From the NCBI RefSeq assembly GCF_013167455.1, contig NZ_CP038328.1: a DNA stretch of 64,000 bases. One strand, 5' to 3'. This stretch comes from Escherichia coli O157:H7. Lineage in GTDB: Bacteria > Pseudomonadota > Gammaproteobacteria > Enterobacterales > Enterobacteriaceae. Positions 48,370 through 49,395 of this stretch are shown piece by piece. How positions within the stretch are numbered: the stretch's first letter is position 1; the number at the start of each line of letters is the position of its first letter. The position numbers were made by a program, and so were the translations under genes. The notes under the pieces were generated by a model. It was not told the DNA's origin, ran no database searches, and saw only the letters and a program-made list of their open reading frames with translations.

Positions 48370-49395
48370 TCAGGAATGTGGCGCTGAATGCGCGACAAAA
48401 GGTGTTTTCTGTTTGTGTTTTTTCTCCTGATACATCGCGATATCGGCAGCATGTAGGGCACTGTCTGCATCGGTCGTTTCAGGATCGACTTCTACTATGC
48501 CAAGACTGGCACCAGGATAATACAAATCAACATCACCTAAGTGATATTATCCGCGTATTTGCTGCTGAATGCGTTCTCGCAGCGACGAAATATCCGCATT
48601 CTCGTTGTTTAGTGAAACAACCAAAAACTCATCACCGCCGAGACGACCAATAACTTCGCCATTTTGCTGGAGCGTATTAAGGCGCTCGCCAACCTGAATG
48701 AGAAACAGATCGCCACTATTATGACCAAAACGATCATTGATTAATTTGAAGTTATCCAGATCGATAAACGCGATCATTATCTTTTGGTTAAGATGCCGGG
48801 CGAGGGAAAACAGCGTCGTCAGATTTTCAAAAATCGCCCGCCGATTCGGTAGCCCGGTTAACGAGTCGGTATACGATTGCGCAATCAGCGCAGCATTGGC
48901 TTCGCGCAGCTGTTCAACCAGTGCCTCTTTTTGAATATATTGTGCAATCAGTCCGGCGAATAACTGTAAAACCTGTTCCGCGCGTTCACTCCACTGGCGC
49001 TTCTCACTGCTGGCGGCGCAAAGCGTGCCATAGAATGATCCATCCGGTAAGTGAATTGGCGTGCTCAGAAATGTGGTGATGCCAAGATTGCGTGCCGCAA
49101 TACAGTCGCCCCAACGGTCAGGGACTTCATCGCTGAAAAAGCAGTTTTCATCAATGGCGCGTTTGCATAACGAGTAATCCCACGAGACGGTAAAATTCTC
49201 CGGGATGTGCATTTTCTGGCTGTTACGGGCAAACATAATATGCTGCAGGCGCGCTTCGACATCCACTTTGGTCAGGTAGGTTGATTCCATATCAGTGACC
49301 ATTTCCAGCATCTCCAGAAGCTGTCGGACCAGACTTTCCAGTGACTGTTCTTTGGCAAGGGATTGCGAGATGCGGGCGATAATCTGATCTGACAC
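48370..49395 (-). pseudogene. dgcP: Diguanylate cyclase DgcP (YeaP; GAF-GGDEF) interrupted by an in-frame TAA at 48547-48549
   Basis: GTG 49395 with GGAG Shine-Dalgarno opens MSDQIIARISQ...; the frame ends 27 codons after GGDEF (...RIQQQIRG-TAA), then continues for 58 more sense codons (YHLGDVDLYYPGASLGIVEVDPETTDADSALHAADIAMYQEKKHKQK...) to TGA at 48370-48372. GTG to that TGA is 341 codons, the recalled K-12 length. Confidence 0.6.

Follow-up and report, generated by a model that had tools for sequence, protein, structure and literature searches.

A described counterpart of the gene analyzed here is dgcP (yeaP, b1794) of Escherichia coli K-12, which encodes a diguanylate cyclase with a GAF and a GGDEF domain. 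YeaP/DgcP belongs to the cyclases with verified activity, the K-12 protein having been reported as active, and deletion of yeaP in the uropathogenic strain CFT073 leads to less biofilm in glycerol minimal medium, and WspR, a heterologous cyclase, rescues this defect (PMC3484386). During growth of K-12, DgcP is among the more strongly expressed cyclases (PMC5635695), and its overexpression in Shigella causes a slow rise of c-di-GMP (PMC11327459). The same work describes interrupted genes of this family in another pathogenic lineage of the E. coli group: in Shigella flexneri, the GGDEF genes dgcE, dgcQ, dgcN and dgcM are otherwise well conserved but interrupted by single premature stops, as is dgcP in the DNA studied here, and some Shigella diguanylate cyclase genes remain able to raise c-di-GMP despite a nonsense mutation (PMC11327459).

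The window, i.e. the whole stretch of 64,000 nucleotides of E. coli O157:H7 DNA that was analyzed, carries the corresponding gene on its minus strand. Translation of this strand from the GTG at 49395 gives 282 sense codons, a TAA, a further 58 sense codons in the same frame and a TGA at 48370–48372. The elements of the gene are the following:

48370..49395, minus strand: dgcP (yeaP) pseudogene at its full extent, 341 codons plus TGA, colinear with K-12 b1794 and given the same span by PGAP in EDL933.
48550..49395, minus strand: residual open reading frame of 282 codons, which runs from the GAF domain through the linker into the GGDEF domain and keeps the N-terminal two thirds of the latter with its motif; identical to Z2836 / AAG56783.1.
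48625..48639, minus strand: GGDEF active-site motif, residues 253–257, retained 5′ of the stop.
48547..48549, minus strand: premature stop TAA at codon 283; the SNP lies at plus-strand position 48549, corresponding to Sakai 2480303, with A on the plus strand and T on the coding strand.
48370..48546, minus strand: 58 codons plus TGA past the stop, now untranslated, which code for the last third of the GGDEF fold at its C-terminus and are identical to the intact O157/O55 allele.

The conserved segments SLGIV (residues 297–301) and ADIAMYQEKK (residues 317–326) both lie past the TAA with the frame unchanged. The program-made list of open reading frames splits the gene into an ORF of 325 aa ending at 48547 and one of 51 aa at 48370–48525. 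The initial annotation had proposed that the dgcP frame is cut by an in-frame TAA at 48547–48549 with homology running on to 48370–48372, that its 341 codons equal the length of K-12 DgcP, and that a single GAA-to-TAA change (G-to-T on the coding strand) is responsible. The same interruption is seen on the translation, the MG1655 b1794 protein is 341 aa long, and the gap-free alignment with MG1655 has GAA at codon 283. The spacing given there needs correction, since the stop is not 27 codons past the GGDEF motif but is the 26th codon after it, with 25 residues between F257 and the stop.

Comparison with K-12 reveals the same length, the same frame and the same order of domains. The alignment with MG1655 dgcP extends over 1026 of 1026 nucleotides without gaps at about 98% identity, and the proteins share 334 of 341 residues; beyond the nonsense change there are 16 nucleotide differences, involving six amino-acid changes, and the K-12 protein is full length. 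The 1026 nucleotides of the window find a match in 5,417 of the 5,426 complete E. coli genomes, and the position of the gene between yoaF and yoaK-yoaJ/yeaQ is conserved in K-12, Sakai, EDL933, TW14359 and CB9615. Sequence identity, colinearity and conserved position together identify the gene as the dgcP (yeaP) orthologue, and the name that it had been given earlier is borne out both by the matches in E. coli genomes and by the annotation of K-12, Sakai and EDL933. It is moreover a nonsense pseudogene, carrying an in-frame stop where close relatives are intact and showing homology that continues in frame 3′ of that stop.

The nearest reference genomes share this allele. The dgcP pseudogenes of Sakai and EDL933 are 100% identical to the window over 1026 nucleotides, with the same TAA at codon 283, and the same 100% identity is found in 86-24, Xuzhou21 and many other O157:H7 strains. 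The window corresponds to the reverse complement of Sakai 2464852–2528851 and is colinear with both Sakai and EDL933, from which it differs over the 64 kb by five and four SNPs, respectively. In Sakai, RefSeq lists the gene as ECs_2503, "yeaP pseudogene", covering only the 282-codon ORF and its stop codon (window 48547–49395), whereas in EDL933 PGAP lists "dgcP, internal stop" (EDL933_RS13495; original ORF Z2836) over the full 1026 nucleotides; the pseudogene is accordingly drawn with 849 nucleotides in Sakai (NC_002695.2, 2479457–2480305) and 1026 in EDL933 (NZ_CP008957.1, 2573782–2574807). The annotations of these two genomes also differ in the choice of start codons, for instance in yeaI, fadD, rsmF and msrC. 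Database entries exist for the 282-aa product under "hypothetical protein Z2836", AAG56783.1 (E. coli O157:H7 str. EDL933; UniProt A0A0H3JEP2), and the product is found on at least 1000 contigs of public assemblies. Across the equivalent of the 64-kb window in EDL933, dgcP is the sole pseudogene flagged by PGAP. The lesion is thus already known from public annotation, and the gene is an ordinary nonsense pseudogene. The initial annotation had read it correctly, and the lesion is real, but it had missed both that the gene is a RefSeq pseudogene and that the stop marks lineage I (see below). No explicit account of the O157:H7 dgcP stop was found in the literature searched, which omitted the likeliest source, Povolotsky & Hengge 2016; yeaP is not mentioned in the supplements of Richter et al. 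2014, nor in the main text of the paper on the derivation of O157:H7 from O55:H7.

The distribution of the stop was followed by means of named reference strains and of 99-mer counts rather than a full phylogeny. Among the 5,426 complete genomes, exact matches to the 99-mer centred on the stop number 138 in its TAA form and 190 in the otherwise identical GAA form, counts that omit genomes with the TAA plus a nearby second SNP as well as reversions. Carriers of the GAA form include O55:H7 DEC5 strains and the sorbitol-fermenting strain 493/89. The stop was also repaired in silico (T to G) and the resulting sequence searched against the complete E. coli genomes: the repaired gene is 100% identical to that of O55:H7 CB9615 and RM12579, of O157:H7 TW14359, EC4115, SS17, SS52 and FRIK944, and also of 644-PT8, 180-PT54 and the beta-glucuronidase-positive O157:H7 strain PV15-279. 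In CB9615 and in TW14359/EC4115, dgcP is a coding sequence for 341 aa that has GAA at codon 283 and agrees with the window at all other dgcP nucleotides; it is annotated as intact in both TW14359 and CB9615, with the same protein (WP_001302710.1), and the flanking gene order in these two strains is that of the window. In the 29 kb around dgcP there are 7 SNPs between the window and TW14359 and 23 between the window and CB9615, and inside dgcP the nonsense SNP is the only one. Neither of the two findings named in the initial annotation as fatal to its reading, a TAA in the reference gene or C in place of A at plus-strand position 48549, was obtained, K-12 having GAA at this codon and position 48549 being A in 138 complete genomes.

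The TAA is present in Sakai, EDL933 and strain 9000, and GAA in TW14359, EC4115, 180-PT54 and O55:H7. The published lineage labels (9000, Ic; Sakai, Ia; TW14359, I/II; strain 180, II; PMC8743559) agree exactly with this split. The stop is therefore not common to all O157:H7 but is a marker SNP of lineage I, which O55:H7 and lineages I/II and II lack. Because O55:H7 and lineages I/II and II have GAA, and because the labels match the split, GAA would be the ancestral state and TAA would have arisen on the branch leading to lineage I. A dated phylogeny gives an age of about 150 years for the ancestor shared by lineages I and I/II and of about 125 years for lineage I (PMC5320567), from which we infer a single origin of the stop roughly 125–150 years ago.

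Very probably, then, dgcP in the window is a young loss-of-function pseudogene that goes back to a single G-to-T change on the lineage I branch and has been inherited clonally. One transversion turned Glu283 (GAA) into TAA; on the O157:H7 haplotype it would have occurred once, on the branch to the lineage represented by Sakai, EDL933, 86-24 and strain 9000, whose members would have received it by clonal descent. The intact gene has been kept in O55:H7, in early-branching O157 and in both lineage I/II and lineage II.

It might be argued that positive selection favored the stop on the stem of lineage I, a lower output of c-di-GMP by DgcP, with less biofilm and more motility or expression of virulence, having been advantageous, and that the stop now contributes to the phenotypes of lineage I. 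We consider this unlikely. The occurrence of the TAA in the lineage I strains Sakai, EDL933 and 9000, and of the TAA 99-mer in 138 complete genomes, would be in line with it, as would the relatively strong expression of DgcP in K-12 (PMC5635695) and the c-di-GMP dependence of the biofilm phenotype of the dgcP deletion in CFT073 (PMC3484386). However, an SNP that arises on the stem branch of a clonal lineage reaches all descendants and becomes fixed without selection, so that positive support for an adaptive loss is nil. The stop would, furthermore, have a single origin: convergence was looked for on the K-12 haplotype alone, and no exact match to a TAA form of this haplotype was found in the complete genomes. 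Disease-causing O157:H7 strains of other lineages retain an intact dgcP, and in EDL933, which is curli- and cellulose-negative, part of the classical output of c-di-GMP is already silent because of a prophage in mlrA (PMC4287979). A more specific version, in which the loss of dgcP was adaptive at the origin of lineage I through less constitutive c-di-GMP and perhaps, by polarity, less YoaK and YoaJ, appears slightly less likely still. If it were true, the loss would shift biofilm formation, motility or colonisation and would add to the phenotypic differences between lineage I on the one hand and lineages I/II and II on the other.

The K-12 DgcP sequence, 98% identical to the window protein, served as input of the Pfam scan, which gives the following domain footprints:

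48931..49347, minus strand: GAF sensor domain, residues 17–155, intact (PF13185, E 4e-10; PF01590, E 1e-8).
48406..48873, minus strand: GGDEF domain footprint, residues 175–330, broken at 283 (PF00990, E 6e-41, model positions 2–160 of 161).

The stop at residue 283 is located, as had been claimed, inside the GGDEF domain. A complete domain (PF00990, about 160 residues) is no longer encoded, residues 283–330, i.e. about 30% of it, being lost. Solved GGDEF structures align to DgcP through residues 326–333, the crystallised domains 7a7e (TpbB) and 4urs being examples for which residues 328–333 are given. The GG(D/E)EF motif itself is present in the truncated protein (residues 253–257). The RxxD inhibitory site, an optional feature of the feedback-inhibited subclass, is absent, the twelve residues upstream of the motif being TLQQNGEVIGRL, and it is likewise absent from K-12 DgcP. 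In GGDEF structures generally, the segment missing here would hold core β-strands together with the conserved "AD-A-Y-AK" helix that contacts the nucleotide phosphates. The translated product would be 282 residues long and would consist of the GAF domain, the linker and some two thirds of the GGDEF domain; it is probably unstable and should be unable to make c-di-GMP. With roughly the final third of the GGDEF domain missing, the best reading of the domain anatomy is that cyclase activity would be lost. In the literature, activity is reported for the intact orthologue only (PMC3484386, PMC11327459).

It is very improbable that dgcP is nevertheless functional, whether by read-through giving the full-length enzyme or by a GAF fragment that regulates independently of c-di-GMP. 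The promoter-proximal part of the gene is indeed intact, as is its GAF domain, and there is no decay at all 3′ of the stop. Such decay is not expected, though, at an age of about 125–150 years, and the tail would have remained undecayed because the lesion is only that old; the 29-kb neighbourhood as a whole is only 7 SNPs away from TW14359. The base following the TAA is T, and among the stop contexts of E. coli UAAU generally ranks as the most efficient, for which reason read-through should be minimal; UAA, moreover, cannot encode selenocysteine. Past the stop, the only candidates for an in-frame restart are the TTG of codon 291 and the ATG of codon 321, which would yield fragments of at most 51 aa that lack the GGDEF motif. 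Neither half of the interrupted gene contains a complete GGDEF domain. An argument for retained function comes from Shigella, where some of the cyclase "pseudogenes" make c-di-GMP and an apparently full-length dgcN protein was observed (PMC11327459). In that case, however, the stops are placed ahead of the GGDEF domain, the whole of which can be restored from starts further downstream (PMC11327459), whereas the stop in the window splits the domain, and for this reason no product of the window with the whole GGDEF fold would be expected. That the stop results from a sequencing or assembly error, for which nothing speaks beyond the general fallibility of a single-base call, is practically excluded, since 138 independently finished genomes, Sakai and EDL933 among them, have the same base and the truncated protein is found on at least 1000 contigs.

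Read as a recent, clonally inherited loss, the allele would remove one of roughly a dozen active diguanylate cyclases from the network of lineage I O157:H7, and models of c-di-GMP signalling derived from K-12 should allow for this when applied to Sakai or EDL933. As a clean single-base marker, the SNP sets lineage I apart from O55:H7 and from lineages I/II and II, and the natural alleles, which differ by one base, offer a ready isogenic comparison. Its importance is limited, the stop bringing neither a new mechanism nor an open question.

Two small membrane-protein ORFs, both intact, follow dgcP on the same strand:

48239–48337, minus strand: yoaK (32 aa), starting 33 nucleotides past the dgcP TGA.
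48162–48236, minus strand: yoaJ (24 aa), downstream of yoaK.

A scan for promoters and terminators around dgcP gave nothing above the expectation from shuffled sequence, and on the minus strand it found no terminator-like site between dgcP and yoaK. About 210 nucleotides of untranslated RNA separate the premature stop from yoaK-yoaJ. Because this stretch precedes the two genes and no terminator-like site lies between, it is conceivable that the stop lowers yoaK/yoaJ expression through transcriptional polarity.

The window differs from both Sakai and EDL933 at four plus-strand positions: 53393 (yeaK G48G), 45800 (dmlR I167V), 40669 (yeaX P125T) and 20061 (rlmA R79R). Positions 53393 and 45800 differ from TW14359 and CB9615 as well. 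Over 14 kb the best match is FRIK1989, which is exact, with the group of strain 9000 (lineage Ic) one mismatch off. Given the four SNPs shared against both references and the proximity of FRIK1989 and strain 9000 over 14 kb, the window is, as judged from its sequence, from a lineage I strain other than the Sakai and EDL933 reference genomes. At the dmlA-yeaV junction the window contains a segment of 224 bp (43736–43959) that is absent from K-12 MG1655, and yeaV is annotated with 1611 nucleotides in O157:H7 vs. 1446 in K-12; relative to the window, the K-12 gene looks 5′-truncated.

The 64-kb window holds four genes of c-di-GMP signalling, among which dgcP alone is disrupted; the other three are:

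about 55250–56725, minus strand: cdgI/yeaI, undisrupted.
53579–55069, minus strand: dgcJ/yeaJ, undisrupted.
26861–28459, minus strand: pdeD/yoaD, undisrupted.

In cdgI there is one SNP between the window and TW14359 (window position 55539), and the protein assigned by PGAP is WP_024165918.1 in TW14359 and WP_024165563.1 in both EDL933 and CB9615.
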